Position numbers and translations under genes: made by a program. Positions 15,751 to 32,000 of a stretch of 32,000 nt of DNA are shown here, in pieces. The notes under the pieces are model-generated. The model worked only from the letters and a program-made list of their open reading frames with translations, was not told the origin of the DNA and ran no database searches. Position 1 is the stretch's first letter, and each line of letters opens with the position of its first letter. Source of the DNA: Xylanibacter ruminicola 23 (GTDB taxonomy: Bacteria; Bacteroidota; Bacteroidia; Bacteroidales; Bacteroidaceae); the NCBI RefSeq assembly GCF_000025925.1, contig NC_014033.1, positions 2,370,001-2,402,000 of the forward strand, read 5' to 3'.

Positions 15751-15769
15751 CGGAACGCCTTCACGTTCC

Positions 15770-15796
15770 AAAGGCGTGCATGAACAAGCATACTAA
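15770..15796 (+). repeat. relic second copy of the asnB 3' end (AAAGGCGTGCATGAACAAGCATACTAA = KGVHEQAY-stop)
   Basis: It matches 15724-15750 at 23 of 27 positions. All four differences fall at third codon positions and are synonymous. Confidence 0.85.
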
Positions 15797-15801
15797 AAAA
15801 A

Positions 15802-15835
15802 GCGGCCCTTCCTTTTCGGAGGAAGGGTCGTTTTT
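15802..15835. terminator. bidirectional rho-independent terminator (asnB / ABC ATPase gene)
   Basis: The GC-rich stem CGGCCCTTCCT / GGAGGAAGGGTCG closes a TTCG tetraloop and is flanked by AAAAAAA and TTTTT. Confidence 0.85.
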
Positions 15836-15855
15836 CTGTTATGACAATGCGGCGC

Positions 15856-16530
15856 TTACAGCGTAACCTCAGGCACTACCTGACCGTCGAGCAGGTTGAT
15901 GGTGCGCTGGGCATAACCGGCATCGCGCTCCGAGTGGGTTACCATTACCACGGTGGTACCCTCCTGATTCAGCTGGGTAAGAAGCTGCATCACCTCAAGT
16001 CCGTTCTTTGAGTCGAGGTTACCAGTGGGCTCATCGGCGAGGATAATCTTAGGATTCATCACTACGGCACGGGCGATGGCCACACGCTGTTGCTGACCTC
16101 CTGACAACTGCTGGGGGAAGTGGTGGGCACGATGACTGATGGCCATGCGGCGCAGTACCTCCTCTACCCTTGCCTTGCGTTCCTTCTTGGGCACACCCAG
16201 ATAAGTAAGAGGCAACTCTACATTCTCTTCAACATTCAATTCATCAATCAGGTTAAAGCTCTGGAACACGAAACCAATCTGGCCCTTGCGAACCTTGGTA
16301 CGCTGACTCTCCTTGAGCGAGCCCACATCCTGACCATCCAGCAGATACTGACCACTGGTAGGATTATCGAGCAAACCCAGAATGTTAAGTAAGGTTGATT
16401 TACCACAGCCCGATGGACCCATGATGGCCACGAACTCGCCTTTCTTTACTTCGAGCGATACACCGCCCAATGCAACGGTCTCCACCTCTTCGGTACGGAA
16501 CACCTTCTGAATGTTTTCTAACTTAATCAT
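15856..16530 (-). CDS. ABC transporter ATP-binding protein, MacB/LolD-type (224 aa)
   Basis: Walker [10 protein letters not shown], signature LSGGQQQR and Walker B ILADEPT are present. Confidence 0.95.
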
Positions 16531-16541
16531 AAGCTTATTGT

Positions 16542-16571
16542 ACTATTTGACTATTTACTATTTCACTATTT
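16542..16571. repeat. four copies of ACTATTT (AAATAGT on the coding strand) at 8-7-8 nt spacing
   Basis: Read directly. They fill the permease-ATPase spacer, and the last copy overlaps the permease stop codon. Confidence 0.9.
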
Positions 16572-18927
16572 ATTCGTTCTTAAGATAATCTACCGGGTTG
16601 CTGCTGGCCACACGATAACAGCCGATGCAAACTACCGAGAGGATAACCACCACTACTGCCAGGGCACAAAGACCGAAGAGTACTGGCAACAGGACAGCCT
16701 TTTCGCTGAATTGCTCTAACCACAAGCGCGACACATACCAGCCACCGATGGCACCGATAACCACTGCAGGCAAGGCCAGGCGCAGAATATCGCGGATAAA
16801 GAGCTGCAACACATCGATGATATGCGCGCCGTTCACCTTGCGCACGGCAATCTCCTTCTGTCGGCGAGCCAACTCACCAGCCAGATAACCAATCAGTCCG
16901 ATCAGGGCAATAATCAAAGCTACCATTCCACCAATCATCACGGTACTGCGGAAACGGTGGGCGTCGGTATAAAGCTGCGTCATTAACATGGTATAGGGGC
17001 GCATGACTACATCGGGATTCTCGGGAATCAGCTCGTGCAAACGCTTGTTGGCGGCATCGAGCGCACCCATATCGTGGAAACGCACGGTGATATGGTGGGT
17101 GTATCTCATGTTCTGGTCGTAGAAACAGATGCTGGGACGCGTGTCGGGATGGGTGATACTACCGATACGGGGATCGTCGAACACACCCACGATGGTGTAA
17201 GGACCTTCGTAAGAGGTACAGATTACCTGCTTGCCAACAGCCTGATCCCAACCAGCCAACTGCTTCATCTTCTCCTCGAACTTACGACTTACCATCGCCT
17301 CGCGCATGGTGTCGGTCTGCTGCGTAAAGGTACGACCAGCAATCACGGGTATGCCCATCACCTCGAAGTAATCATCGCCTACATCAAACAGGTCGGCCAC
17401 ATTCATGTATTCCTTGTCATCGCCTGGCAGGAAGATGTTATCGCCACTCTGCATCTCAGGCAGGTAGGCATAAGATGTGGTAACACCTTTCACACCCGAC
17501 AGCTTTTTGAGCTCACTAACCACCAGTCGTTTCTGTGTCAACGAGAGCTCGTCGGTATTGAGATCGGCCAGGGTTGAATAGTCGTAACCTGGATTATCGT
17601 TCACCATCAGCTGATACTGGCGACCTACCACTAGCAGTAGTACAAAGAGGAAGGTGGCCGAACCGAACTGCAATCCCAGCAACAGCATTTTCCACGCACG
17701 GTGCGAATGGTTGTAATGCTTAAAGGCGGCAGTCATGGGGATGTGGGTGTAAGCCCAACCGGGCACCAGACCTGTGATAACCAGCACCACCAGACAAGTA
17801 AGGGCGATGAACCCAATGTTATGACCTGTAGTAAGGATGACCGGTAGTGGCGTGCCCGTAAGTTCCTGGATGGTATCCTGGAAGACGAACAGCAAGCCTG
17901 CGGCCAGCGCTAACGATAACAGCAGGTGCAGCACACTCTCGATCATCACGCGACCATAGATATTTCGCACCTCGGCACCATAGCAACGGTGTACAGCCAT
18001 CTCACGAGCGCGGCGACTAATGCCACCAATCACCAGCAACAGATAGTTCATCACCGCACAGCCAATCAGCACCATGGCCAGCAACGAGATAATCCATATC
18101 ATACGACGTGTAGCATCGTCCTGTGTATGATAGTCGGCCAACGGGCGCAGCGAGTAATCGAGATCCACACCGGCCTTCTTCAGTTCGTCGGCAGGCAGGT
18201 TGTCGCGTCGCATCTTCGCAATCTGTGCTTTCAAATCGTCGGGAGTGATTCCCTCGGCCAATCGCACATAGCCAAAGTAGCGATCGTTACCCACCCAGTT
18301 GTCGCGACCATCCCAGGTTATCTGGGGCAGTGTAGGCATCGATACCAGCACCTCCAAGTCGTGCAGTCGGGTGTTCAGGGGGATATCCTCGTAGATACCG
18401 CCAATAGTGAGTGCCAGATTGCCACGCTTATTATAATACACCTTCTTACCAATCACGTCGCCCCCCAGTTTCTCGGCTATCGACTGCGGAATCATGCAGT
18501 AGTTGGGCTGACTGAGCGTTTTCTTTGGATTACCTGCCAGAATACGGTAGGGAAACACATCGAAGAAACAGCTATCGGTAAAGAAAAAATTGGTACGTAT
18601 GCGCTTATCGTCTTCGGTAACCAGTGGCAGGTCCCAACCAAAGCCTGTATAGCGGGTAGCGGCCTCAACCTGCGGGCAGTAGCGCTTCAAGCCGTGAGCG
18701 ATAGCACCCGATGTTTGTGAGTAATGCTGATATTCACCATCGCGGATGATATCCTCATAGAGCACATAGATGCGGTCGCTCGTATCGAAGTCTTTATCCC
18801 ACGACTGTTCGAAACCAGCCTTACCTATTAATACAATACCAGTAGCCAGACCAACAGCCAGACAGAGAATCTTAATCCAGTTGTGCTGACCACGCTGATT
18901 GAGAGATTTGATAACGTTCATATGCAT
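16570..18927 (-). CDS. ABC transporter permease, double FtsX/MacB_PCD type (785 aa)
   Basis: The protein has two blocks, each with a large periplasmic loop followed by FtsX-type TM helices. Start moved to ATG 18927 (MHMNVIK...) because a promoter lies inside the longer ORF. Confidence 0.85.
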   Translation of the reverse strand: MHMNVIKSLNQRGQHNWIKILCLAVGLATGIVLIGKAGFEQSWDKDFDTSDRIYVLYEDIIRDGEYQHYSQTSGAIAHGLKRYCPQVEAATRYTGFGWDLPLVTEDDKRIRTNFFFTDSCFFDVFPYRILAGNPKKTLSQPNYCMIPQSIAEKLGGDVIGKKVYYNKRGNLALTIGGIYEDIPLNTRLHDLEVLVSMPTLPQITWDGRDNWVGNDRYFGYVRLAEGITPDDLKAQIAKMRRDNLPADELKKAGVDLDYSLRPLADYHTQDDATRRMIWIISLLAMVLIGCAVMNYLLLVIGGISRRAREMAVHRCYGAEVRNIYGRVMIESVLHLLLSLALAAGLLFVFQDTIQELTGTPLPVILTTGHNIGFIALTCLVVLVITGLVPGWAYTHIPMTAAFKHYNHSHRAWKMLLLGLQFGSATFLFVLLLVVGRQYQLMVNDNPGYDYSTLADLNTDELSLTQKRLVVSELKKLSGVKGVTTSYAYLPEMQSGDNIFLPGDDKEYMNVADLFDVGDDYFEVMGIPVIAGRTFTQQTDTMREAMVSRKFEEKMKQLAGWDQAVGKQVICTSYEGPYTIVGVFDDPRIGSITHPDTRPSICFYDQNMRYTHHITVRFHDMGALDAANKRLHELIPENPDVVMRPYTMLMTQLYTDAHRFRSTVMIGGMVALIIALIGLIGYLAGELARRQKEIAVRKVNGAHIIDVLQLFIRDILRLALPAVVIGAIGGWYVSRLWLEQFSEKAVLLPVLFGLCALAVVVVILSVVCIGCYRVASSNPVDYLKNE

Positions 18928-18948
18928 TATTTGTTGATGTTTACGCTG

Positions 18949-18979
18949 CAAAGATACGGCTATTAACCAATATCTGCAA
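18949..18979 (-). promoter_or_regulatory. Bacteroidota promoter (minus): TTG, 20 nt, TATCTTTG
   Basis: Exact geometry, 21 nt upstream of ATG 18927. Confidence 0.65.
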
Positions 18980-19006
18980 GCTTTTTGCACGGCCCGTAGG
19001 CGGTAT

Positions 19007-19044
19007 GTCTAAACATTATACGGTTCACTGTATGATTTTTATAC
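19007..19044. promoter_or_regulatory. bipartite palindromic motif, copy A: GTCTAAACATTATAC-N8-GTATGATTTTTATAC
   Basis: One of three copies in the window. It lies 27 nt from the -33 TTG. Confidence 0.7.
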
Positions 19045-19056
19045 ACTTGCCACCAG

Positions 19057-21408
19057 TTACTCGGTTTTAATGCTCTCAACCGGGTTGGTACGCACGGCTT
19101 TGATAATCTGGATGCTAACCGAGAGTACAGCTACCAGCAGGGCAAAAGCACAGGTAACGGCGAATATCCATGGGCTCAAGCTGATGCGATAGCTGAAGTT
19201 GCTCAACCAGTCGGTCATCACGTACCACGACAGCGGGATAGCGATGACAAACGATACCAGCAATGGTGCACAGAAGGTGCGCAGCATGAGTGCCATCACC
19301 TCGTGCGAGGTTGAACCCATAATCTTGCGGATACCAATCTCCTTCTGTCGCTGACGGATAAAGAAAAGCGACATACCGATGAAGCCCATCACCGAAATTA
19401 CAATCGCCACAATGGTAAAGAGCGAGATAATCTTGAGCGTATTCTTTTGATCGGCGAAGGTTTCGGCGATACTCTCCTCCAGCGACTGCACAGACCATTC
19501 CATATCGGCCTCGGGCACACCTTGTTCCTTCAGCATGGCTGTGAAAGTCGCCTTGGCCTGCTTGTCGCCATTGGTCTTCACCAGGAACGAAGGATAGTTG
19601 AACGAATCCTTGAATTGGATGACAAAAGGCTCAACACCTTGCAACACATTGATACGATGGATATCGTTAAGCACACCAGCGATAGGTTTATTCCAAACAG
19701 TCTGTGTGGTGGTGTCGGTATATTCCATCTGGCGCATAGCCTCCTCCGTCAGATAGTAACCATCACTGGTTTGTCCATAGTCTTTCTTTTTCTTAAACCC
19801 ATAAAGGTCGTAGGCCGTTTTGTCAAGGTCTAATAAGTAGAGAGTCACCAATTTATCGTTACGCGTCACACTTTGCATGCTACAGCTACCAGTAGCCAGC
19901 GAGGTTTTCTCGAACCTACCTATTTTCTCCACAAAAGGCATCTTCTCCAAGAGGTTTCTCACAGTTTGATGTTTGCCATCGGGAGCGTCGATAACAAACA
20001 GATGCTCTGTGTTGTAGCCCAGCGGCGCATGAATCAGATGATTCAGTTGCAACCAGATAACGAGGGCCGACGTAAGCATCACCACGGTTACCACATTCTG
20101 CAGAATGATAAAGATCTTGCTCAGCACCATCTTGGAGCGATAGCGGAAACTGCCCTTGACGATGTCGATAGGCTGGAAACGTGAAATCTGCCACGAAGGC
20201 ATGATGCCCGAGATGATACCCACCAACAGGATGAAAGCGATGCTAACACTAACGGTACCCAGACTGATATCGCCAGCAAGGTCGATCTTGCCCTTAAACA
20301 AATCGATAGCCTCATCCTGCAAGGCAAAGGCTAAAGCCAGACCGATGGCAAACGATACAGCTACCATCAGGGTTGATTCGGCAATCAACTTCAACGAGAT
20401 ATCCTTCTGACTACTACCGAAGAGTTTTCGGGTGGCCATCTCCTTGGCACGGAAGCCTGTGTTGGCAACCGTCAGGTTGATGTAGTTGCTGATGGCAAAG
20501 AAGAGGATGGCCAGCACAGCAGCCAACAGGATGCGAAGTCGCGACTTATCACCTTTCTGCATACCGGCTCCACTATTCTGTGGCGCAAACATAATGTCTT
20601 TGAGTGACGTAAAGGTCAGCTCCGTAGCCTCCCACTTACCATAGTAATTCTTATCCAGATAATCGGCAATAACAGACTTCTTGCTATCGAGACTGGTGCC
20701 TGGGTGCAGCATGAAGAATACCTTACTAACACCATTGGGGCCATAGGCCGCTGTGTAATTCTCGAGCTGATAGCCCATCACCTGCGGATAGCGCTGCATG
20801 CTCACGATAATCTGCGTCTCGTTAGGCAGTACGGTATGATCAAAGTCCTTTGCTATCGCACTAACGGTATAGACCAGCGTACTGTCGTAAGGGTCGTCGT
20901 GCCCGATACGCACGTGGCGCTCGCCAGTAATCTGAACCGACTCACCAATGGGGTTCTTATCACCAAACAAGCGCTTAGCCAGTCGCTCTGTAATCACGCA
21001 CTTATCGGGTTTATCAAGTGCATAACGCTTGTTACCCTGCGTCAACTCATAGTCGAAGAAGTTGAAGAAAGTAGAGTCGGCCAGCATGATCGTACTCTTG
21101 TCGTCGCCATCTTCCACCACGCGGTCGCCATATTTGATTTTTCCACTCTGACTCATCACACAGCAAGTCTGCTCCACCTCAGGGCACATCGCTTTGATAT
21201 CGGTGGCAGCCTGAGGCCACATAAAGAAATTATCCTGACTACCTATCAGAACAATCTGGTCGGCATGCTTGTGCCACGAGTCGATAGTAAACTGGCGCCA
21301 GGTGTAGTCGCCCAGCAGGATGATAAACATGAGTGACACTACAAGCCCTACCACATTGATTAATGTGTAGAGCTTGTTGCGTGAGAGAAAACGGAAATAA
21401 CTCTTCAT
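19057..21408 (-). CDS. ABC transporter permease, double FtsX/MacB_PCD type (783 aa)
   Basis: MKSYFRFLSRNKLYTLINVVGL... is a typical FtsX-family N-terminus. The C-terminal FtsX block ends ...AVRTNPVESIKTE. Confidence 0.9.
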   Translation of the reverse strand: MKSYFRFLSRNKLYTLINVVGLVVSLMFIILLGDYTWRQFTIDSWHKHADQIVLIGSQDNFFMWPQAATDIKAMCPEVEQTCCVMSQSGKIKYGDRVVEDGDDKSTIMLADSTFFNFFDYELTQGNKRYALDKPDKCVITERLAKRLFGDKNPIGESVQITGERHVRIGHDDPYDSTLVYTVSAIAKDFDHTVLPNETQIIVSMQRYPQVMGYQLENYTAAYGPNGVSKVFFMLHPGTSLDSKKSVIADYLDKNYYGKWEATELTFTSLKDIMFAPQNSGAGMQKGDKSRLRILLAAVLAILFFAISNYINLTVANTGFRAKEMATRKLFGSSQKDISLKLIAESTLMVAVSFAIGLALAFALQDEAIDLFKGKIDLAGDISLGTVSVSIAFILLVGIISGIMPSWQISRFQPIDIVKGSFRYRSKMVLSKIFIILQNVVTVVMLTSALVIWLQLNHLIHAPLGYNTEHLFVIDAPDGKHQTVRNLLEKMPFVEKIGRFEKTSLATGSCSMQSVTRNDKLVTLYLLDLDKTAYDLYGFKKKKDYGQTSDGYYLTEEAMRQMEYTDTTTQTVWNKPIAGVLNDIHRINVLQGVEPFVIQFKDSFNYPSFLVKTNGDKQAKATFTAMLKEQGVPEADMEWSVQSLEESIAETFADQKNTLKIISLFTIVAIVISVMGFIGMSLFFIRQRQKEIGIRKIMGSTSHEVMALMLRTFCAPLLVSFVIAIPLSWYVMTDWLSNFSYRISLSPWIFAVTCAFALLVAVLSVSIQIIKAVRTNPVESIKTE

Positions 21409-21426
21409 TTTTTATTCTTTATTTTT

Positions 21427-21981
21427 TTATTTCTGTGTAAGATAATAATCCATGTTCAGTGTATGGCTCTCAACAGGTGCCTGCCACTCCAGTTGCAAAT
21501 CGGTTTTGCTACGCTGACGGGTGTAACAAGCCACGCTGGCGATGCTTTCATCGGGCATCAGGGTATAGGTAATCTTACCTACGGGCTCGTCGAAGTCGGC
21601 CTTCTTCTTGTTCCAGCGACTATAAGTGGCGGTGTAGAATCCGGCATCCAGCGAGTAGCTGTGGCGACCTGCGCACTGCCACTGGTTCTTGCGCCATACG
21701 TACTTAGTACGACTGGTAAGCATGCCATCGGCAGCATAGTTGTACTGGTAGCGGTAGATGGGCTTCAGGGTGAAGTTACCCTTGCGCTGGGGCTGTTCCT
21801 GATATACCACCATCGTAGCAATCTTACCATCGGCATCACGATCAGCATTGTAAACAAACTCTGCGTCGGAGGCTTGAGAGACTGTGTCGAAAATCTTATC
21901 GACTGTTGCAGATGTCATTACTTGTGCATTTGAGGTCAGAGCCATCAGGCACATCATCGAGCTAATCATAAACTTTTTCAT
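21427..21981 (-). CDS. small secreted/periplasmic protein of unknown function (184 aa), possibly DUF3836-like
   Basis: Signal peptide MKKFMISSMMCLMALTSNAQ. The Tyr-rich beta-type sequence includes YRYQYNYAADGMLTSRTKYVW. The family call is a weak recollection. Confidence 0.6.
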   Translation of the reverse strand: MKKFMISSMMCLMALTSNAQVMTSATVDKIFDTVSQASDAEFVYNADRDADGKIATMVVYQEQPQRKGNFTLKPIYRYQYNYAADGMLTSRTKYVWRKNQWQCAGRHSYSLDAGFYTATYSRWNKKKADFDEPVGKITYTLMPDESIASVACYTRQRSKTDLQLEWQAPVESHTLNMDYYLTQK

Positions 21982-22031
21982 AATCGTACTTATTTAAAAT
22001 GTTACTACTTTGTTTTTTTCTTTTCACATTG

Positions 22032-22062
22032 CAAAGTTACGATCATTTCATATTATATGCAA
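22032..22062 (-). promoter_or_regulatory. Bacteroidota promoter (minus): TTG, 20 nt, TAACTTTG
   Basis: Exact geometry, 50 nt upstream of ATG 21981. Confidence 0.65.
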
Positions 22063-22089
22063 GCTTTTTTGAGTGCCCGGAGGGCGTTC

Positions 22090-22127
22090 GTCTAATCTTT
22101 ATACACACTATCGTATGATTTATTTAC
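22090..22127. promoter_or_regulatory. bipartite palindromic motif, copy B: GTCTAATCTTTATAC-N8-GTATGATTTATTTAC
   Basis: It lies 27 nt from the -33 TTG, as in copies A and C. Confidence 0.7.
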
Positions 22128-22137
22128 ACTACCCTGA

Positions 22138-24491
22138 TTATTCGGTTTTGATACTCTCAACAGGATTGGTACGCACAGCCTTCATAATCTGAATGCTGAC
22201 AGAAAGGACAGCCACCAAAAGGGAGAAAGCACAAGTGGCGACGAATATCCATGGACTGAGACTGATGCGATAACTGAAGTTCGAGAGCCAATCGTTCATC
22301 ACATACCACGACAGGGGGATGGCCATCACAAACGATACCAGCAACGGCACACAGAAAGTGCGCAGCATCAGCATCATAACCTCGCTTGAGGTGCTACCCA
22401 TAATTTTACGAATACCTATATCCTTCTGTCGCTGACGGATGAAGAAGAGCGACATGCCGATAAAGCCCAAGACAGACACCACGATGGCAATGAGCGTAAA
22501 GAGCGTGATGAGCTTCAGCGTATGTTGTTGATCCTTGAATGTCTCAGCAATGCTTTCCTCAATACTCTGCACGCTATTTTCTGCAGATCCATTCAGTTTT
22601 TTCATCATCTCATCAAAGGCAGCCTTTGCCTGCTTATCACCATTTGTTTTTACCAGAAACATTGGGAACTCTTTGTCCTTCTGTACTCGGATAGCAAATG
22701 GTTGTATAGGCGAAAGAACATTGACAGAATGGAACTCTTCGAGTACTCCAGCAACCGGTTCTTTTCCCCCATCATACCAACCTAATTCTCGGGCATCGAT
22801 TTTATTGTCTAACTGCCGTAGTGCCTCTTCATTCAGATAAATACCGTCATTACTGGTTCCATGATTATGCTTGATTTGCAGTCCCAACAATTCGAAAGTA
22901 GTCTTGTCCATATCCGTCTCAAACATAGATACAAACTTGTCGTCACGGACAATGATATAAACACCTGTATGAAACTGATTGAATGTGCACCCGTTAAAGG
23001 TCCTATTCTCTCTACAAAAGGCATCTTTCTCAGCTTACTTCTGACAACCTGCTCCTTCCCTTCGGGACTGATGATATAGAAGAGATTTTCTGTATTAAAG
23101 CCAAGGGGGGCATGGATAAGATGGTGCAACTGAAGCCAGATAACCAAACTGGCCGTGAGCATCGTAACAGTAATAACATTCTGTAGGATGATGAACACCT
23201 TACCAAGTACCATTTTGGAACGAAAGCGGAAATTACCTTTCACGATATCGATGGGCTGATAGCGGGTCATCTGCCATGAGGGCAAAAGACCTGAAACAAT
23301 ACCAACCAGGAAGATACCTCCAAGACAGAGGCTCACACTCACAATATTGATATCATCTGTGATGGCTATCTTACCTTTAAACAGACTGATGGCATCATCC
23401 TGGAAGCACAGCGCCAAAGCCAATCCTATAGCAAAAGCAAGTGCTACCATCAATGTCGATTCGGCTATCAGCTTCCACGCAATCATTCGTTGACTACTAC
23501 CGAAAAGCCGTCGGGTAGCCATTTCTTTGGATCGGAATCCCGTATTGGCTACAGTTAGATTGATATAGTTGGTGATGGCAAAGAATAGCAGAGCAAGCAC
23601 GGCTGTAATCAAAATATGCAGGCGTGTTTTGTCGCCTTTCTGCAGACCCTTTCCATCATTCTGAGGTGCAAACATCACTTCTTTGAGCGGCGTTACACTC
23701 ACCTTATATTCTCCGAAAGGAATGAAATAGTTATTGACTATATAGTTATCAATGGTTTTCTTCTTGTTATCGAGAGTCATCCCTGGACGGAGCATGAAGA
23801 ACACCTTGCAGGCACCTGCATTACTGAATGCATAGGAGTAGCTAGGAAACTCTGCACTCAGCATCTGTGGATAGCGTTTCATATTAGCGATGATCTGCGT
23901 CTCGTTAGGCAGCACTGTATGGTCGAAGTCCTTTGCAACGGCACTGACGGTATATACCAACGTGCTGTCGTAAACGGTATTGCCAGGCTCCACATCATAC
24001 TCGCCTACAATCTGTACTGATTCGCCAATAGGATTCTTATCTCCAAACAGTCGGTGAGCCAGTCGTTCTGTGATGACACATTTATCTGGGGAGTTTAAGG
24101 CTGTTTGACGACTTCCTGTCTCCAACTCAAAGTCGAAGAACTGGAAAAAAGTGGAGTCTGCCACCATGATGATGCCATTTTCGTTTTCGCCGTCCTTCAC
24201 CTCCTGCCGACCATACTTGATTTTTCCCCTCACACTCATCACACAGCATTTCTGCTCTATCTCAGGACACATCTCCTTAATCCTATCTCCAGCCTGAGGC
24301 CACATGGAGAAACTTGTCTGGTCCCCCACCAGATAAATACGATCGGCATTCTTGTGCCACGAGTCGATGCTGTACTGGCGCCAGGTGTAGTCGCCCAGCA
24401 GGATGATAAACATTAACGACACGACAAGCCCTACCACATTGATTAATGTGTAGAGCTTGTTGCGCGATAGGAAGCGAAAGTAACTTTTCAT
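22138..24491 (-). pseudogene. frameshifted double-FtsX ABC permease, paralog of 19057-21408
   Basis: ORFs 22833-24491 and 22138-22926 are collinear with the 783-aa paralog. Homology switches frame after ...MPFVERIG, near 23000-23010 on the plus strand. The downstream frame is open from there to 22138. Confidence 0.75.
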
Positions 24492-24504
24492 GCGGTTTTA
24501 TGGT

Positions 24505-26883
24505 TTATTCGTTCTTAATGTTGTTGATAGGATTTTCGGTTGCGGCGCGCCATCCCTGCAGGGCGGCAGTAAGCACATTTACTACCAGCACGATGATCAG
24601 CGAGAGTACCAACGGCGTGAACTGCATCTCTACATGCAAACCTGATATACTGCCTGCCGTAGGTGCCAGCCAGTAAGCCAACGGGATAGCAATGATGGCG
24701 GCTACCAGCGACTGTACAAACACCGTTCGTAACAAGTGCAGGGTGATACTGCTTACTTCGGCACCAAACACACGGCGCACAGCAATCTCACGCCTACGCT
24801 GACCTACAAAGTAACTGTTCATCGCCATCAGTCCCAGGATAGCTATCAGCAAGGCCACAAACGTAAACACGGTAAGCACACTCAGGAATCGCTCGTAATC
24901 CTCGTACCATTCCTGATGCTTCTGACTCAGCGAATGAACCTCGGAAGCCTCATGACCAGTCAGCTCCTGGAACAAGGTTTTCATCTTTGCCTCTACCCGC
25001 TCGCGATCGCCATGATATTTCACAATCGTCATACGTGGCGAGCCGTACATACGCTGCACAAAACTGGTGGTGTCGTTAACATATTCATCCGTTTTCAACA
25101 TCATGATAGGTGTGGGATGCATCTCCTCGTTCATCACGGTCTGATAGATAATATCGGGATAAACAGCCGAAATAGTCATATTGAAGTGACCACTGGTGCT
25201 CACTATCTCTCGGGTATCATCACTCTTACCAAACTGGCGCAGTAACTGGTGGTTCACACCTACTCCATTATCCGAATAAGTCTTCTCAGGATGCAGGTTC
25301 AAGATATTGAAGAAACAGCTGTCGCCCATCAGGTAGCGCATACTTACCACTGTACCATCGTCGGCCTGGGTGGTGTTGTTCTCCAAGAAATCGAGCGGCG
25401 TACCATAGCCATAGCCCACGCCATCAACCTCGGGCATCTGCAACAACTTCTGACGATAGGTCTGACGCTGTGTCAAACTCAGGTTATGAAGTCCCCAGGT
25501 TTCCAGAATATTCTCGTAATCGTAACCTAAGGGCTGATGCATCTTTTCGCGGATATTGCTACTGAGCAACAAGGTTACAGTGAGCATCACGATGGCAAAC
25601 ACAGCCTGAATCACCATCAGCACATGACTCCAGCGCTGGCGCACACGGCGACGGAAGGTGCCACGAACGATATCGATAGGCTGGTAGCCGCTAAGTATCG
25701 AGGCGGGCACAAAACCTGCCAACGCCCCCACCAAAGCTATCATCACCACAAAACCAATGATGGTAACAATACCAGTATCTTTGAGCAGATCTATCTGACA
25801 AGCAGCCATCTCGATAGCCTTATCCTGCAGGGCAAGGGCAACCAGATAGGCCACAGCAAAGGCGATGGCGGTGAAGAAGATGCTCTCGCCTATCAGCTTC
25901 AGGAACACCTGCAGGCGCGAGAGACCTAACAATCGGCGTGTGGCCATCTCCTTCGAGCGCTCGGTAGTGAGCGACACACTCAGGTTGACATAATTAAAAA
26001 TAGCGAACACCAGCACCAGCAGGGCTATCACCACATAGAGGTGAGCCATATCGCGATTGCCATGGTTCAGGTCGCCCGACTGGAATGAGCATTCCTTGGC
26101 GTCGTAATACAGATTGGTCAGCGATGTAAGCACCACCTTCTTAACAGCCTCCATGCGATAGAGCCAGAAGAAGGTCTTCATATACTCGCGCATGGCATCG
26201 GCCTTACTGCGCAGGTCGCAACCCTCTTTCTCCATCAGAAACAGTACCGTACTGCCGGCATTGGTCATCTCCTCGGTATAAGCCGAATAGTTAAAATGCT
26301 TATGACTCTCGAGGTTCACCACGCACTCGTGACTGCTGGGGATGACAGAGCGGTCGAAATCGTCCATCACACCGCTGATGGTATAGGTGACATGCCCGTC
26401 GGGATCGTTCTTATCACCCAGCACCACCTCCTTGCCTACTGCATCGCCCTCGGGCCAATAGCGTTCGGCAAACTTCTTGCTCACCACCATCTGGTTGGGG
26501 GCTTCGAGCACTTTATGCTTGTCGCCAGTCAGCAACTGGTAGTCGAAGAACTCAAAGAAGTTAGGTGCCACCACCAGGATTTTGGTTTTGGCCTCCATGC
26601 CTCGGATATCGAAGGAGGCATCATAACCAGAGACAGAGCACCACGCCTCTATTTCAGGGAAACGGTCCTGCAATTTCTGACCCACACGGAAGTGCGACAT
26701 GGTGAACTCCTCGTTACCCAATGCGAAGATACGCTCGCCACGGGTCTGGTAGTTCTCTACTGATGTCTGACGGTAGATGAGGTCGCCCAACAGCAACAGG
26801 AAGGCCATCGACAGGCACAGGCCCACAATATTAATAATGGTAAACAGGCGATGGCGACCCAGGAACTTAAAATAGCTTTTCAT
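24505..26883 (-). CDS. ABC transporter permease, double FtsX/MacB_PCD type (792 aa)
   Basis: MKSYFKFLGRHRLFTIINIVGL...; two FtsX blocks; C-terminus ...ATENPINNIKNE. Confidence 0.9.
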   Translation of the reverse strand: MKSYFKFLGRHRLFTIINIVGLCLSMAFLLLLGDLIYRQTSVENYQTRGERIFALGNEEFTMSHFRVGQKLQDRFPEIEAWCSVSGYDASFDIRGMEAKTKILVVAPNFFEFFDYQLLTGDKHKVLEAPNQMVVSKKFAERYWPEGDAVGKEVVLGDKNDPDGHVTYTISGVMDDFDRSVIPSSHECVVNLESHKHFNYSAYTEEMTNAGSTVLFLMEKEGCDLRSKADAMREYMKTFFWLYRMEAVKKVVLTSLTNLYYDAKECSFQSGDLNHGNRDMAHLYVVIALLVLVFAIFNYVNLSVSLTTERSKEMATRRLLGLSRLQVFLKLIGESIFFTAIAFAVAYLVALALQDKAIEMAACQIDLLKDTGIVTIIGFVVMIALVGALAGFVPASILSGYQPIDIVRGTFRRRVRQRWSHVLMVIQAVFAIVMLTVTLLLSSNIREKMHQPLGYDYENILETWGLHNLSLTQRQTYRQKLLQMPEVDGVGYGYGTPLDFLENNTTQADDGTVVSMRYLMGDSCFFNILNLHPEKTYSDNGVGVNHQLLRQFGKSDDTREIVSTSGHFNMTISAVYPDIIYQTVMNEEMHPTPIMMLKTDEYVNDTTSFVQRMYGSPRMTIVKYHGDRERVEAKMKTLFQELTGHEASEVHSLSQKHQEWYEDYERFLSVLTVFTFVALLIAILGLMAMNSYFVGQRRREIAVRRVFGAEVSSITLHLLRTVFVQSLVAAIIAIPLAYWLAPTAGSISGLHVEMQFTPLVLSLIIVLVVNVLTAALQGWRAATENPINNIKNE

Positions 26884-26889
26884 AACGCT

Positions 26890-28143
26890 TTACTTAATCA
26901 CTAACACTTCGTTATCCTTAAATGCTTCGTAACCACTGGTAACCACGCGCTCGCCTGGCTCCAGACCTTCGAGAATCTCGTAGTACTGAGGGTTCTGGCG
27001 ACCTACACGGATGTTACGACGATAAGCCTTAGAGCCACTCTTGTCGAGTACAAATATCCACTGTCCACCTGTGGTCTGGAAGAAGGTACCACGAGGGATG
27101 ATGATGGCCTGCTCGGGCTGACCCAGTTCCAGGTCGATATAATAGGTCTGACCAGAACGGATGTTCTCAGGGCGCTCGCCTTTGAATACGAAATCACAAC
27201 GGAACTTACCATCGCGCACCTCGGGGTACACCTTGTGCACCTGCAACTGGTACTGCTTGTCGCCACGGGTAAAGGTAGCCGAAAGACCTGGACGAACGCG
27301 GTCGATATAATGCTCGTCGATGCTGGCCTGCACCTTGTAGTCAGAGAGGTCGTTCAACTGACCAATCTTCTGTCCAGGCTGAATGCTCTGTCCTAACTCC
27401 ACATCCAGCAATCCCAGTTCGCCATCGATAGCCGAACGTATCTCGAGCTTATCCTTACGCTGGCGAACCAATACCACGTTCTTACGCATGTTCTGCAGAT
27501 TGTCCTCCATCTGGTCCATCTGCACGGTGCGATAGATAGAGTCCTGCTTCAGGCGCTTGGTAATGAGCGAGCGCTTCTTGGCAGAGAGCTGGTAATCCTC
27601 CTGCGACTTGATGTAATCCTCCTTGCTAATCAGCTTCTCGGCATACAGGCGCTTGTTCTGATCGTAGGTGCGCTGTTTGCGATGGGTGTCCATATCCAAC
27701 TGAGCCTGCTCAGTCTGGTTGTTCAAACGGTCCTGTTGCATAGCCACCTGGGTGTTACGCAGCAGGTTCTGCTTCTCGGCCAGTTCGGCCTCGGCATTCA
27801 GAATCTGCAGGTCGAGGTTCGAGTTGCTCAATCGAACAATCACATCGCCCTTGTGCACCATCGTACCTTCTTCAACCACCTTCTCCATCACGATACCACC
27901 TTCTTCGGGCGAAATCTGTACTATCTGGATGGGCAGCACCTGTCCGTTGGTACGTACATAGTCCTTAAACTCAGCACGCTGTGCTTCGCTGATGGTCATC
28001 TCGTCCTTGCTCACCTTGAGCGTCGAGGCATGGTTGCCAAAAATCAGCCAAGCTAACATAACTAACAACAAGCTACCGCCTGCTGCGTATGGCCAATACT
28101 TCTTCAGTTGCTGACTCTTAGTTTTTTCGATTACTCTGTCCAT
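26890..28143 (-). CDS. efflux periplasmic adaptor (membrane-fusion protein, HlyD/MacA family, 417 aa)
   Basis: The protein has an N-terminal TM anchor, a lipoyl-like segment (GGIVMEKVVEEGTMVHKGDVIVRL), a long coiled-coil region and a beta-barrel C-terminus. Confidence 0.85.
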   Translation of the reverse strand: MDRVIEKTKSQQLKKYWPYAAGGSLLLVMLAWLIFGNHASTLKVSKDEMTISEAQRAEFKDYVRTNGQVLPIQIVQISPEEGGIVMEKVVEEGTMVHKGDVIVRLSNSNLDLQILNAEAELAEKQNLLRNTQVAMQQDRLNNQTEQAQLDMDTHRKQRTYDQNKRLYAEKLISKEDYIKSQEDYQLSAKKRSLITKRLKQDSIYRTVQMDQMEDNLQNMRKNVVLVRQRKDKLEIRSAIDGELGLLDVELGQSIQPGQKIGQLNDLSDYKVQASIDEHYIDRVRPGLSATFTRGDKQYQLQVHKVYPEVRDGKFRCDFVFKGERPENIRSGQTYYIDLELGQPEQAIIIPRGTFFQTTGGQWIFVLDKSGSKAYRRNIRVGRQNPQYYEILEGLEPGERVVTSGYEAFKDNEVLVIK

Positions 28144-29510
28144 ATTGTTTCTCCTTTATAATATCTTACTAATTGTTCCTTTACCATAGCCATGAGCTGA
28201 CATTGCAGCAGGGTGGCTTTTGAGTTGAGTAGCTGTGCCGATGTGGTGTGCAGATCGATGGCTGTTGCAAGTCCCTCTTCGAACTGTCGACGGGTAAGCT
28301 GATAGGCGATGCTATCGGCCTCAACCTTCTTCTCCATCTGTATGGTCTGCTTCTGATAGCCCTGCCAGTCCTGCCAAGCCTCGCTACTCAGTTTGGCCAG
28401 TTCCAGTTGTTTCTGGTCGTAAGCCTCCTGGGCAATCTTGTAGTTGTTCTTGGCCTTGCGGATGCTGGTAAGGGTTTGCAAACGGTTGAACAGGGGGATG
28501 TTGACTGATACGCCAAAGTATTCACCCATATTATTCTTCATCTGATTGCGGAATGTCTCCGCAGCATCGTTATGTAGCGTTTTGTAATAAGTGGTGCTCA
28601 GACCCGCACTGAGAGAGAGTGATGGGTAAAGAGAAGCGCGAGCCTGATGCCACTCATGTTTCGATGCCTGCATGCGATAACGGGCCACCTGCAGTTCTGG
28701 ATGGCGCTCGTTATCCAGATTTTTTTCTTGCGTCCCGTTGGTAGCAAGCGGCGAGCCGATTACCCACGTTGGGAATGAATTGTTCCCACACTGGGAATCA
28801 AACATTCCCACGTTGGGAATATATTCCAGGCTCAGACTATCACCCAAGGGATAGTTCATGGCCTTTTTCAGTTCCAATATAGCCGAGGCATAAAGGTTCT
28901 GCTGGCGTGTCAGTTCGTAATCGGCCTCAGCCTGTTGCGATTCCACCTGAGCCACATCAGCAGCACTCTTTCGCCCCACCTCTTCAAGCACTTTTACCTG
29001 CTTGAGCAACAACAACGTTTCTTCTACTTTCTCCTCGGCCATTTTTACCAAACCATCGTAGTAAGCCACGCTGGTATAGGCCTGCAGTACGTCGAGTGCC
29101 GTCTGATCCTGACGCTGGCGCAGACTGGCGCGTCCCATCAACTCGCTGGCCTTAGCGGCCTTGAGGGCATGCAGACGACTGAATCCGTCGAATACTGGCA
29201 ACGACGCCGAGAGTTGATAGCCATTATAAAAGGTACTCACATCGGTATAGCCGTTGGTCTCTGGGTCGATGGCACGTCCAAAGTTATACTGGGCACCGAT
29301 GCCAGCATCCACAGAAGGCAGGAAATTACCGATAGCACCGGTCTTCGATGCCTTATAGTTGTCGAGTTCCAACTCGGCCTGTTTCACCTCGTGGTTATGC
29401 TGCACCGCATACTGCATGCATTGCTGCATGGTCCAATCGCTCTGAGCCGAGGCTTGCTGGACGGCCATTGCCAAACATATCTTCAATAATGCTTTCATAC
29501 GCTTTATCAT
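28131..29510 (-). CDS. TolC-family outer membrane efflux protein
   Basis: Signal peptide ...LAMAVQQASAQ, followed by two repeats of the OEP coiled-coil/beta pattern. Start set at ATG 29510 (alternative 29498) because the track's TTG at 29525 lies inside the -7 box. Confidence 0.85.
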   Translation of the reverse strand: MIKRMKALLKICLAMAVQQASAQSDWTMQQCMQYAVQHNHEVKQAELELDNYKASKTGAIGNFLPSVDAGIGAQYNFGRAIDPETNGYTDVSTFYNGYQLSASLPVFDGFSRLHALKAAKASELMGRASLRQRQDQTALDVLQAYTSVAYYDGLVKMAEEKVEETLLLLKQVKVLEEVGRKSAADVAQVESQQAEADYELTRQQNLYASAILELKKAMNYPLGDSLSLEYIPNVGMFDSQCGNNSFPTWVIGSPLATNGTQEKNLDNERHPELQVARYRMQASKHEWHQARASLYPSLSLSAGLSTTYYKTLHNDAAETFRNQMKNNMGEYFGVSVNIPLFNRLQTLTSIRKAKNNYKIAQEAYDQKQLELAKLSSEAWQDWQGYQKQTIQMEKKVEADSIAYQLTRRQFEEGLATAIDLHTTSAQLLNSKATLLQCQLMAMVKEQLVRYYKGETIWTE

Positions 29511-29522
29511 TTTTTTCTGATG

Positions 29523-29553
29523 CAAAGATAGGGTAATAAATATTACCTGCCAA
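29523..29553 (-). promoter_or_regulatory. Bacteroidota promoter (minus): TTG, 20 nt, TATCTTTG
   Basis: Exact geometry, immediately upstream of the tolC-like start. Confidence 0.65.
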
Positions 29554-29580
29554 GCAAAAATAGGGCTCCAAAGGCTGATT

Positions 29581-29618
29581 GTCTAAAATTTATACACCCT
29601 TTTGTATGACTTTTATAC
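29581..29618. promoter_or_regulatory. bipartite palindromic motif, copy C: GTCTAAAATTTATAC-N8-GTATGACTTTTATAC
   Basis: It lies 27 nt from the -33 TTG of the tolC-operon promoter and 60 nt from the -33 TTG of the divergent regulator promoter. Confidence 0.7.
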
Positions 29619-29678
29619 AATTCTTCGTATCTCTGGCTTCGCCGAAGATACTTTCGTTCGAAAAAGCTCAAATAAAAT

Positions 29679-29709
29679 TTGGCTTTTTGCTCACTTATTC
29701 GTATCTTTG
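29679..29709 (+). promoter_or_regulatory. Bacteroidota promoter: TTG, 20 nt, TATCTTTG
   Basis: Exact geometry, 17 nt upstream of ATG 29727. Confidence 0.65.
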
Positions 29710-29726
29710 CACACAAAAATTACATT

Positions 29727-30254
29727 ATGAACAAGTACGGAACCATATTAATCGTTGATGATAACGCGGCCATCCTTACCGCTATGCGTTATCTGCTTGA
29801 CGGCACTTTCGAACAGGTGCTGACCTCGACCAACCCCGATGACATTCTGAAACTGATGGCCCAGCAAACCATCGACATCGTAGTACTCGACATGAACTTT
29901 ACCCTTGGTGTAAACAATGGTAACGAGGGCCTTTTCTGGCTTCGCACCATCCGCAAACAGCACCCCGAAACACCTGTGGTACTGCTCACAGCCTATGCCG
30001 ACATTAACCTGGCGGTAAAGGGACTGAAGAACGGCGCCGCCGATTTTATCACCAAGCCTTGGGATAACGACGAACTGCTACGCAAACTGAAAGATGTGCT
30101 GGATATGCAGAACGAAATCGTCAGTCTCGACGAAGTGGAACAGGAGCATATCCGTCGCACCATCGACCACTGTCATGGTAATCTCACTCAAGCCGCCCAG
30201 TTGTTGGGTATCACCCGTCAGACTCTTTACAACAAGATGAAGCGACTTAGTTAG
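29727..30254 (+). CDS. response regulator, receiver domain plus Fis-type HTH, no AAA+ domain (175 aa)
   Basis: ILIVDDN and VVLDMNF (phospho-acceptor Asp) and ITKPW mark the receiver domain. The C-terminal GNLTQAAQLLGITRQTLYNKMKRL is a Fis/HTH_8 motif. Start moved to 29727, downstream of the promoter. Confidence 0.9.
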   Translation: MNKYGTILIVDDNAAILTAMRYLLDGTFEQVLTSTNPDDILKLMAQQTIDIVVLDMNFTLGVNNGNEGLFWLRTIRKQHPETPVVLLTAYADINLAVKGLKNGAADFITKPWDNDELLRKLKDVLDMQNEIVSLDEVEQEHIRRTIDHCHGNLTQAAQLLGITRQTLYNKMKRLS

Positions 30255-30275
30255 TTGATAGTTGACAGTTGATAG
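30255..30275. repeat. tandem heptamers TTGATAG TTGACAG TTGATAG between the regulator stop and the kinase start
   Basis: Read directly. The array is preceded by TTAG TTAG, which contains the TAG stop, and followed by TT and then ATG 30278. Confidence 0.9.
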
Positions 30276-30277
30276 TT

Positions 30278-31156
30278 ATGGTTACCTTGTGTATTATTAT
30301 AGGTGTGGTACTGGTAGTGTTGGTGATAGCCATTGTGCACCACCAGCATAAGTTGCGATTGCGTGCCCACCTGATGAAAGAGGCCATACGCAATCAAGAC
30401 TTCTCGTTTCGCCTGCCCACCAACAATCTGTTACCTGGCGAGCGTGCCATGCAGGAAGCGCTCAACGAGCTGGGCGAGAATATCCGTCAACAGATGAACA
30501 AGAACGAGGTAGAATCGTGGGAGCGATTAACCCGTGTGCTTACCCACGAGATGATGAACGCCACTGCACCTATCACCAGCATCAGTCAGTCGTTACTGAG
30601 CCGTCCCGACGTAAAGGGCACACTCCTCGAAGATGGTATCAAAGCCATCTACGACACCTCGCGCCATCTGAGCGATTTCGTAACCAATTATCGTAAGATG
30701 TCGGAGCTCGAAAAGCCTGTCCTTTCCGAAGTGCCCTTGCACCCTATGCTCGACGAGCTTTGCAAAACCTATCAGCAGTTGGCTTGGACCATCGATGTGC
30801 CTGCCGATACTATCTTAAAAGCCGATAAGGGCATGCTGCGACAGATATTGATGAACCTCATCAAGAACGCCATCGAGGCCGAAGCCACCAAGATTATCAT
30901 TGAACTCACCAACCAGCCATCACCTAACACCCAACACCCATCACCTATCACCCTACTTATCGGCAACGATGGCAGTCCTATCCCTGCCGAAAACCGCCAG
31001 TCGCTGTTTGTGCCATTCTTTACCACCAAGCGCACAGGTAGCGGTATCGGCTTGTCGTTAAGCCGACGAATGATGATACAACAAGGTGGCATGCTGGATC
31101 TGGCAGAAAAGAATCTACCAGGTTGTCATGTTACGTTTGTACTCTCCTCTATCTGA
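30278..31156 (+). CDS. sensor histidine kinase, one N-terminal TM helix and no obvious sensor domain (292 aa)
   Basis: H-box LTHEMMNATAPI, N-box LMNLIKNAIEA, G1 GNDGSPIP and G2 GSGIGLSL are present. ATG 30278 is preferred over TTG 30269. Confidence 0.9.
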   Translation: MVTLCIIIGVVLVVLVIAIVHHQHKLRLRAHLMKEAIRNQDFSFRLPTNNLLPGERAMQEALNELGENIRQQMNKNEVESWERLTRVLTHEMMNATAPITSISQSLLSRPDVKGTLLEDGIKAIYDTSRHLSDFVTNYRKMSELEKPVLSEVPLHPMLDELCKTYQQLAWTIDVPADTILKADKGMLRQILMNLIKNAIEAEATKIIIELTNQPSPNTQHPSPITLLIGNDGSPIPAENRQSLFVPFFTTKRTGSGIGLSLSRRMMIQQGGMLDLAEKNLPGCHVTFVLSSI

Positions 31157-32000
31157 GTGGTAGGCCAGTTTACCAAAAACAGTTTTTCGGTAGCACGTGT
31201 AAAAGCGGTGTAAAGCCAGTGGATATAGTCGGGCGTCAACATATCGTCCGTCATATAACCTTGGTCGATATACACATGCGCCCATTGTCCGCCCTGCGCC
31301 TTATGACAGGTAACGGCATAAGCAAACTTTATCTGCAGGGCATTAAAGTATTTATCTTTCTTCAGTTGCTTAATGCGGTCGGCCTTCAGGGGAATATCGG
31401 CATAATCTTCCATTACCGCATTATACAGTTGTTCCTGTTGTTCGCGCGACAGAGCAGGCGATTCGGTAGTCAGCGAATCGAGAATCACGGTAGCCGTGAG
31501 TTCGTAGTTATCGTAATCGGGTAGCGTCATCGTCACATCAGCAAAGCGGAACCCGAACAGTTCGTGAACATTGCGCACACGCTGCACCACAGCGATATCG
31601 CCGTTGGCCAGGAACGATATCTCCTTGGATTGTTCAGTCCAGTAATAGTTGTTCTTCACAATCATCAGTTGGTCGCCACGACACAGTTCGTCTTCGCGAT
31701 CCAGCACCGTGTTTCGGATACCCTGATTGTAGATGTTAGCGCGCTTGTTACTACGGGTAATCACCATCGTCTCGTCCATCCCCACCCTACTGTAGCTGGT
31801 GGCCAGCGATTCTATCAGCTCATCGCCTGGCACACGCACAATATCAGCAAAGCCCTGGAATCGGATTTTGGGCAGAATCCAATCGTCAATCAGCGTTCTG
31901 ATACGGGTAGCATTCCAAAGTATACCCGAATCCTCTGATTGTCTCAGCACCTGGTTCAGGTCGCACTCGTACACTTTCAGACCGTAGGCACGTAGCACAT
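31126..32000 (-). CDS. SF1 RecD/Pif1-like ATP-dependent DNA helicase, C-terminal part (continues beyond the window)
   Basis: YAVTCHKAQGGQWAHVYID and LYTAFTRATEKLFLV are the C-terminal helicase motifs. The frame is open to position 32000. Its last 31 nt overlap the convergent kinase gene. Confidence 0.8.
   Translation of the reverse strand, partial: VLRAYGLKVYECDLNQVLRQSEDSGILWNATRIRTLIDDWILPKIRFQGFADIVRVPGDELIESLATSYSRVGMDETMVITRSNKRANIYNQGIRNTVLDREDELCRGDQLMIVKNNYYWTEQSKEISFLANGDIAVVQRVRNVHELFGFRFADVTMTLPDYDNYELTATVILDSLTTESPALSREQQEQLYNAVMEDYADIPLKADRIKQLKKDKYFNALQIKFAYAVTCHKAQGGQWAHVYIDQGYMTDDMLTPDYIHWLYTAFTRATEKLFLVNWPTTQIEESTNVT

Follow-up and report, generated by a model that had tools for sequence, protein, structure and literature searches.

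A tandem-dyad element locked to sigma-A promoters as the probable operator of a REC-Fis response regulator in efflux loci of Prevotellaceae

Bacterial efflux pumps are in several well-known cases governed by a regulator-kinase pair encoded beside the pump genes, as in AdeRS-AdeABC, BaeSR-MdtABC and BceRS-BceAB, with the operator in the shared intergenic region and with probable autoregulation. The regulators of these systems are OmpR-type winged-helix proteins that read direct repeats, their pumps are of the RND type or Firmicute BceAB, and Bce-type kinases have two membrane helices. A separate family, ActR/PrrA/RegA, joins a receiver domain (REC) directly to a Fis-type helix-turn-helix (HTH) with no AAA+ module; its RegA/PrrA operators are G/C-rich (GCG..CGC type), its regulon consists of redox and photosynthesis genes rather than an efflux pump, and its partner RegB is a multi-pass, redox-sensing kinase. 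Here, we analyze an efflux locus of Xylanibacter ruminicola 23 (RefSeq assembly GCF_000025925.1, contig NC_014033.1, positions 2,370,001 to 2,402,000; this whole 32-kb stretch is called the window, and coordinates are counted from its first letter) whose logic resembles that of the first group and whose parts differ. A 38-bp element made of two palindromic dyads stands at one and the same distance from three sigma-A promoters of the locus, and we propose that it is probably the operator of the adjacent response regulator, a REC protein with a Fis-type HTH that, when phosphorylated, would bind each dyad as a dimer and activate these promoters. This Bacteroidota REC-Fis regulator and its operator are undescribed so far, and are kin both to NtrC-type tandem-dyad enhancers and to PrrA-type regulators; a full-text literature search found no publication on the motif or on the regulator, in keeping with an earlier, sequence-only reading of this DNA that knew of no description of the motif.

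Each copy of the element consists of two 15-bp dyads with 8 nt between them and dyad centres 23 bp apart. Copy A (GTCTAAACATTATAC-GGTTCACT-GTATGATTTTTATAC, 19007-19044) lies upstream of permease 4 and an ABC transporter ATPase, copy B (GTCTAATCTTTATAC-ACACTATC-GTATGATTTATTTAC, 22090-22127) upstream of a DUF3836 gene and permease 3, and copy C (GTCTAAAATTTATAC-ACCCTTTT-GTATGACTTTTATAC, 29581-29618) in the divergent control region between tolC and the regulator gene; as elements of the minus strand, they score 50.7, 44.5 and 50.9 bits, respectively, with a position weight matrix (PWM) of the family. The window holds three instances of the pattern GTCTAA-N3-TTAKAC-N8-GTATGA-N3-TTAKAC, whereas shuffled sequence has none. 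With up to three mismatches the bipartite pattern still matches only copies A, B and C, against 0.00 expected from 100 dinucleotide-preserving shuffles, and single 15-mers at up to two mismatches are confined to these copies plus one chance match at 4218. The sequence-only reading had placed the three copies at these positions, and it had also given a half-site consensus that held in part: the 15-mers are palindromic and 8 nt apart, but the TTATAC it contained is a minority variant seen in the window, the family-wide consensus being GTCTAA-N3-TTAGAC-N8-GTATGA-N3-TTAGAC.

Downstream of every copy on the minus strand come exactly 27 nt, a TTG, 20 nt and a TAnnTTTG box, which puts the -7 box 50 nt from the site and reproduces the spacing claimed earlier for all three. 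Bacteroidota sigma-A promoters carry a -7 box TAnnTTTG at -12 to -5 and a TTG roughly 19-21 nt upstream of it (PMC9723704), and the three efflux promoters, like the regulator's own promoter, all match the form TTG-N20-TAnnTTTG. Promoter A occupies 18949-18979 (TTG at 18977-18979, TATCTTTG at 18949-18956), promoter B 22032-22062 (TTG at 22060-22062, TAACTTTG at 22032-22039), and the tolC promoter at copy C 29523-29553 (TTG at 29551-29553, TATCTTTG at 29523-29530), all on the minus strand and each with an N20 spacer; taking transcription to start about 5 nt past the -7 box, their predicted transcription start sites (TSSs) lie near 18944, 22027 and 29518. Counted from a -7 box at -12 to -5, the TTG falls at -35 to -33, the operator at -63 to -100 and the centres of its dyads close to -70 and -93. 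TTGCA-like strings near -33 raised the suspicion of a sigma-54 promoter in the window, but this was rejected: their spacing is wrong for one, an AAA+ module is missing from the regulator, and a sigma-54-like box is found in 0 of 488 flanks of Prevotella-type sites.

The three copies might be no more than a single promoter cassette that was duplicated, alike through recent common descent and with no dedicated binding function. A tandem duplication of 3083 bp, in which the permease genes share 72-84% identity, does include copies A and B, and in other genomes a stretch of about 100 nt is almost the same in many internal modules. Copy C, however, has flanks unrelated to those of A or B and yet keeps all distances, and the half-sites of the three copies are identical at 22-24 of 24 bases, while the remaining 14 site positions agree at only 4-8 and the 27-nt spacer of C agrees with that of A or B at 11 of 27 positions (18 of 27 between A and B). 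The same pattern of retained half-sites and distances with diverged spacers holds across genomes whose regulators are only 64-70% identical. Among 79 non-redundant modules, whose logo in the direction of efflux transcription reads GTCtAAAAATCATAC-N8-GTCTAATTTTTAGAC-AATCTGC...cTTG-N20-TAnnTTTGCA, information content reaches 1.74 bits per position in the half-sites and 1.72 in the -7 box, compared with 1.11 in the three central dyad bases, 0.62 in the N8 spacer and 0.35 in the N20 spacer. Conserved half-sites, diverged spacers and fixed distances argue for selection on a protein-binding architecture rather than for shared ancestry, as the sequence-only reading had maintained, and we regard duplication by itself as a very improbable explanation. 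Seven bases beside the promoter-proximal dyad (29574-29580; consensus AATCTGC, AATCAGC in copy C) carry about 1.1-1.2 bits per position and lie outside the dyads.

Motif scans covered the window and two collections of related loci assembled by opposite routes. The regulator-anchored set comprises 80 loci fetched by regulator sequence (64-95% identity), with the motif playing no part in their choice; together with the window it amounts to 1.17 Mb, which was scanned with the PWM. The motif-anchored set comes from a scan of metagenomes by motif alone and includes at least 120 stretches, with rumen samples dominating; all counts for it are among the matches listed. Scanning the regulator-anchored loci and the window gave 119 sites, and none in shuffled sequence; the distance from the GTCTAA end of the site to the start of the -7 box is exactly 50 nt in 109 of them and 49 or 51 nt in another seven (116 of 119 within 49-51), and 82 of the 119 have the TTG at 27 nt with an N20 spacer. 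The metagenome sites behave alike, with a -7 box at exactly 50 nt in 127 of the 132 that have enough flank. Exceptions are operator copies without a -7 box at 50 nt in three loci (L047 2473, L085 10647 and L087 1252), which are probably decayed modules, and one metagenome locus (L165, near 1981) with a reversed layout, in which the regulator gene lies on the GTCTAA side with its -7 box at 72 nt, and the gene of a 360-aa protein is found 51 nt from the operator's other end.

The genes behind these sites are equally uniform. In the regulator-anchored set the first genes encode TolC (64), HlyD (7), FtsX permeases (18), DUF3836 proteins (12) and an ABC ATPase (1); in the metagenome scan they encode TolC (50), permeases (37, plus 6 N-terminal permease fragments), DUF3836 proteins (13), ATPases (4) and HlyD (2), with one regulator gene as the sole exception to this efflux-type list and no gene family from outside the efflux locus type among the recognisable downstream genes. 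In these two sets the motif is specific to this locus type and locked to promoters, and is therefore not a dispersed repeat, a possibility that the sequence-only reading had itself raised. The operator also keeps company with the regulator: it lies at most 300 nt upstream of the regulator gene in 73 of the 80 regulator-anchored loci, and a regulator gene stands on the far side of the site in 51 cases of the metagenome scan. Seven regulator-anchored loci have no site beside the regulator, and only two of them (L053 and L079) show a relaxed match, elsewhere in the locus.

Copies A and B lie 12-13 nt past permease stop codons and would be read through by transcripts from upstream, each 15-mer is palindromic, and a strong terminator-like hairpin follows internal copies in other genomes; the element could on these grounds be an RNA-level one, forming small hairpins that act as a processing or termination signal between permease genes. 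We consider this extremely unlikely. Copy C and its many counterparts lie between divergent promoters, where no transcription is predicted, stems of only 6 A/T-rich base pairs are weak, the flanks of A, B and C fold no better than shuffles (z = -0.8, -1.6 and +0.4), and there is no Rfam match in 15500-32000 of the window. The hairpin of the other genomes is conserved and lies between the operator and the -7 box at internal promoters of many loci (for example L057 1695, L047 1627 and L025 6207), with an 11-bp stem (ATCCGCCAGGG-loop-CCTTGGCGGAT), a folding energy of -22 kcal/mol and a T-tract after it; its 3' arm holds the -33 TTG, giving the appearance of a terminator overlapping a promoter, and it is absent from copies A and B of the window.

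The regulator gene (29727-30254, plus strand) encodes 175 aa, with a Response_reg domain at residues 7-121, an HTH_8 domain (PF02954) at 134-174 and no further Pfam domain; its predicted phospho-acceptor is Asp55 and its recognition helix is ITRQTLYNKMKRL. It is 95% identical to that of Prevotella sp. P6B1 and is encoded in at least 571 genome matches, and the layout of the locus recurs in hundreds of related bacteria. The kinase gene (30269-31156, plus strand) encodes one N-terminal membrane helix (about residues 2-22) followed by a cytoplasmic H-box (THEMMN) and HATPase_c, with no extracytoplasmic domain, and no NCBIfam model scores this kinase above its cut-off. It directly follows the regulator gene in all 78 of the 78 loci with room for it, and permease and ATPase genes are neighbours even in the distant loci examined. 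The regulator has the architecture and length of ActR/PrrA/RegA proteins: it aligns to PDB 3rqi and, over residues 6-168, to positions 3-164 of the 173 in NCBIfam model NF033791, with 75.7 bits falling far below that model's cut-off of 250. Its nearest relatives, however, are sigma-54 activators of Bacteroidota and not RegA, and the kinase, with its single hydrophobic helix, does not match the RegB/PrrB type with its multiple membrane passes and redox box. BceS likewise lacks an extracytoplasmic sensor domain and is encoded beside an FtsX-type ABC transporter, but a Bce-like module differs from that of the window, which has a Fis-type HTH regulator and a one-helix kinase.

The anatomy of the dyads bears on which protein reads them. 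A high-affinity Fis site has a 15-bp core that carries G at -7 and C at +7, shows Y-R steps at +/-3/4 and is A/T-rich in the middle, and it has T/A at +/-8 (PMC4784862). The consensus of window-type dyads, GTCTAAAAATTAGAC, has every one of these features, including T/A at +/-8, and Fis belongs to the HTH family (PF02954) of the regulator. Since the dyads are A/T-rich and resemble generic Fis-type sites, they might instead be bound by an unlinked nucleoid-associated or global protein with a Fis-like preference, with the adjacent regulator a bystander. Fis itself has no receiver domain and very degenerate sites, whereas here, with 1.7 bits per position, dyad positions 1-6 and 10-15 hardly vary, a sign that the bases are read specifically, and two dyads at a fixed 8-nt spacing would be required. 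An unlinked binder also fits poorly with a motif that adjoins the regulator gene in nearly all loci, whose recognisable downstream genes all belong to this locus type, and that changes when the regulator's recognition helix changes, and we judge it quite unlikely. The adjacent regulator, which the sequence-only reading had named as candidate binder, thus gains from linkage, from Fis-type anatomy and from the joint change of helix and operator, which is seen only outside Prevotellaceae: the recognition helix is essentially invariant across all regulator orthologues, and covariation within Prevotellaceae is uninformative because it offers nothing to compare.

That comparison comes from more distant cousins. 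A protein search against 1.84 billion cluster representatives gave a few 175-aa clusters and, as the next nearest relatives of the regulator, proteins of about 450 aa that combine REC, Sigma54_activat and HTH_8 domains; the Sigma54_activat (AAA+) domain is present in cousins P0131, P0144, P0150 and P0157 and absent from the window regulator. The closest long cousin is P0131 (Phocaeicola sp. / Bacteroides sp. An269), and a P. coprocola cousin is P0294. Two collinear blocks of the window regulator match P0131, residues 1-124 with 1-124 (59% identity) and residues 133-173 with 415-455 (63%), the recognition helix being the same, and as far as this alignment goes the window regulator is in effect P0131 minus its AAA+ sigma-54-interaction module of about 290 residues. 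The P0131 and P. coprocola loci are of the same type as that of the window, with a divergent cluster of TolC, membrane fusion protein (MFP) and FtsX permeases (the cousin TolC is 43% identical to that of the window) and the kinase directly downstream of the regulator. Tandem 15-bp dyads of the same type (GTCAAA/GTCTAA-N3-TTAGAC) stand in their intergenic regions, keep a constant distance to the target promoter and read GTCAAAAAATTAGAC-N7-GTCAAAAAATTAGAC, or have GTCTAATTTTTTGTC in second place. On the TolC side of the Phocaeicola loci a -24/-12-type box, TGGCACGATATTTG, stands 54-55 nt from the dyads and there is no sigma-A -7 box; across L201, L204-L206 and L207 a TGGCAC-type box lies 53-55 nt away. 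The window differs in its promoters (-33 TTG and -7 TAnnTTTG, against TGGCAC-N5-TTG), in a dyad spacer of 8 rather than 7 nt, in having the operator-promoter module in three copies, and in a kinase that has lost its PAS-containing N-terminal part. We read the Prevotella system as a variant in which the regulator has no ATPase module and the promoters are of sigma-A type.

Recognition helix and operator change together in distant cousins. The helix TRQTLYNKMK pairs with GT[CA][TA]AA-N3-TT[AT]GAC dyads in Prevotella, Phocaeicola and L202, whereas L207, with the helix ITRTALYRRLGK (TRTALYRRLGK), has dyads GTCCGCTTATATTAC-N7-GTCCGGTTTTGATAC 53 nt from TGGCACGATTCTTTC, and L203, with the helix SRKTLYQKIDK, has an unrelated palindrome. 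These pairings suggest that the dyads go with this regulator's HTH, although L203, like L202 with its degenerate dyads (N6 spacer) and doubtful promoter, was not used as support. Long inverted repeats, aacgcagattaacgcagatt ... ttaatccgcgttaatctgcgtt, occupy the leader of the Phocaeicola sigma-54-type regulator gene in L201 (about 7912-7985, and the same in L206). The 2.07 Mb of loci examined contain no RpoN box, a result that is uninformative on whole genomes.

Taken with the regulator's anatomy, the geometry suggests how the system may work. We propose that the membrane-anchored kinase, which has no sensor domain, phosphorylates the regulator at Asp55, and that each 15-bp dyad, with its G/C at +/-7, its T-A steps at +/-3/4 and its A/T-rich centre, is then occupied by one regulator dimer. 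The resulting tetramer, on dyads centred near -70 and -93 at each of the three sigma-A promoters, would contact RNA polymerase from a fixed position and switch on three units: tolC-hlyD-permease1-permease2, DUF3836-permease3 and permease4-ATPase. In class I activation of the CRP type, the classical centres are -71.5 and -92.5. The window site shares with that scheme a place upstream of the -35 equivalent, a constant distance and a constant helical face, and its centres, placed by reference to the -7 box, come close to those values, but the polymerase here would be a Bacteroidota sigma-A holoenzyme with -33/-7 elements rather than one acting at sigma-70-type promoters.

The opposite sign of control has to be weighed against this proposal. 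Were the element a repressor operator, the efflux genes would be silenced by the regulator or by some other protein, for example through a DNA loop that joins two copies or through a block on polymerase recruitment. Looping is conceivable with copies 3-7 kb apart, the -7 boxes of the efflux promoters are good and usually come with a TTG at -33, and in 51 compact relatives the right dyad covers the -33 region of the regulator's own promoter, a typical repressor position. At the efflux promoters, however, 27 nt lie between the site and -33, which leaves the site outside the core promoter, and its distance is base-invariant in more than 230 cases; a site at such a rigid distance upstream of -33 is in an upstream-activator and not a repressor position, and the sequence-only reading had also found the position fitting for an activator. 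Its homologue in the sigma-54-type cousins, 53-55 nt from a -24/-12-type box, also stands where an upstream activator sequence is expected, a point in favour of activation in the window. We therefore hold repression of the efflux genes to be unlikely, while at the regulator promoter the site may serve repression.

Several points weigh against the proposal as a whole. Most of the promoters combine a near-consensus -7 box with a TTG at -33 and may have basal, regulator-independent activity. The site over the regulator's -33 in most relatives has a geometry more typical of repression, and the protein may act both ways. Our scans cover loci and metagenome stretches, and the regulon may have further members elsewhere in the genome. 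An AlphaFold2 model of the regulator, built from a shallow alignment, is of low confidence (pLDDT 63.6), although its secondary structure agrees with REC and three C-terminal helices. Finally, the sigma-54 comparison is drawn from three lineages (Phocaeicola sp./Bacteroides sp. An269, P. coprocola and one gliding Bacteroidota contig), its geometry is not shared by two further cousins, L202 and L203, and the AAA+ module may have been either lost or gained.

On the other side of copy C, the regulator has a promoter of its own, as had been predicted (29678-29709, plus strand; TTTG at 29678-29681, N20 and TATCTTTG at 29702-29709), with a predicted TSS near 29714 and 17 nt between the -7 box and the ATG. 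In the window this promoter is separated from the operator by an insertion of about 74 bp (29633-29706, plus strand), made of 65 nt and the second copy of the direct repeat TTCGTATCT, whose first copy lies at 29624-29632. With the insertion in place, 83 nt instead of 9-10 nt separate the operator from the regulator -7 box, and a TTTG that it brings, exactly 20 nt upstream of that box, supplies a new -33 and completes the regulator's own promoter. It is common to the window, Prevotella sp. P6B1 and a few metagenome-assembled genomes (MAGs), and absent from most relatives. Its sequence was found at this position only, apart from one 37-nt partial match in L051, and as a mobile element it is unproven. 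The region 29624-29706 contains two hairpins, with a DNA fold z of -3.2.

In the 51 compact relatives, which have no such separation, the right dyad ends 9-10 nt before the regulator -7 box and therefore covers the -33 region of the regulator promoter. In 33 of these 51 loci (L006, L010, L055 and 30 others; for example L055 9979-10003) only 4-5 nt separate the end of the -7 box from the ATG, so that the regulator-kinase mRNA is predicted to lack a leader. The suggestion of autoregulation in the sequence-only reading thus fares differently in the window and in the family: across the family it is plausible, given the position of the right dyad, but in this genome it appears doubtful, or at least altered, because the insertion separates the site from the regulator -7 box and provides its own -33.

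The remainder of the locus is read on the minus strand. Promoter C is followed by a TolC-like outer membrane factor (OEP, 28131-29510), an HlyD-type MFP (26890-28143) and FtsX/MacB-type permeases 1 (24505-26883) and 2 (22138-24491); promoter B by a DUF3836 protein with a signal peptide (21427-21981) and FtsX/MacB-type permease 3 (19057-21408); and promoter A by FtsX/MacB-type permease 4 (16570-18927) and the ABC transporter ATPase (15856-16530). Permease 2 carries a frameshift near 22833-22926, visible as two overlapping open reading frames, and is either a pseudogene or the product of an assembly error. The DUF3836 protein is encoded first behind its own operator-promoter in 25 loci, and is a regular yet uncharacterised member of the regulon. 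Unrelated housekeeping genes surround the locus: an ammonium transporter (11963-13219) and asparagine synthase B (14086-15750) on one side and, adjoining on the other, the C-terminus of a RecD2-like helicase (31126-31998, minus strand).

The kinship with sigma-54 regulators suggests an origin for the system. We propose that a sigma-54 enhancer-binding protein shed its AAA+ module while it kept the HTH and the ancestral tandem-dyad upstream activator sequence, and that the targets changed from -24/-12 promoters to -33/-7 promoters locked at 50 nt, with the module then multiplied within the operon. We put this natural rewiring from sigma-54 to sigma-A forward tentatively, as a proposition with a little less than an even chance of being right. 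By analogy with Bce-like flux sensing, there is also a possibility that the sensorless kinase takes its signal from the MacB-type transporter itself.

Multi-permease MacB/FtsX-TolC efflux loci of this kind are widespread in rumen and gut Prevotellaceae, and our analysis provides a precise, testable cis-regulatory code for their uncharacterised two-component system, made up of site, spacing, promoters and candidate binder. To our knowledge, almost no response-regulator operators have been defined in Bacteroidota, and little is understood of how factors bound upstream activate the unusual -33/-7 sigma-A promoters. A 50-nt distance that is exact to the base offers an unusually clean handle on this kind of activation, and the sigma-54 version of the locus in Phocaeicola is a natural experiment on loss of the AAA+ module. 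If the proposed rewiring is true, Prevotella and Phocaeicola would form a matched pair for learning how ATP-driven activation gives way to activation by recruitment. With a known inducer, operator and promoter together could serve as an inducible expression part for Prevotella genetics.

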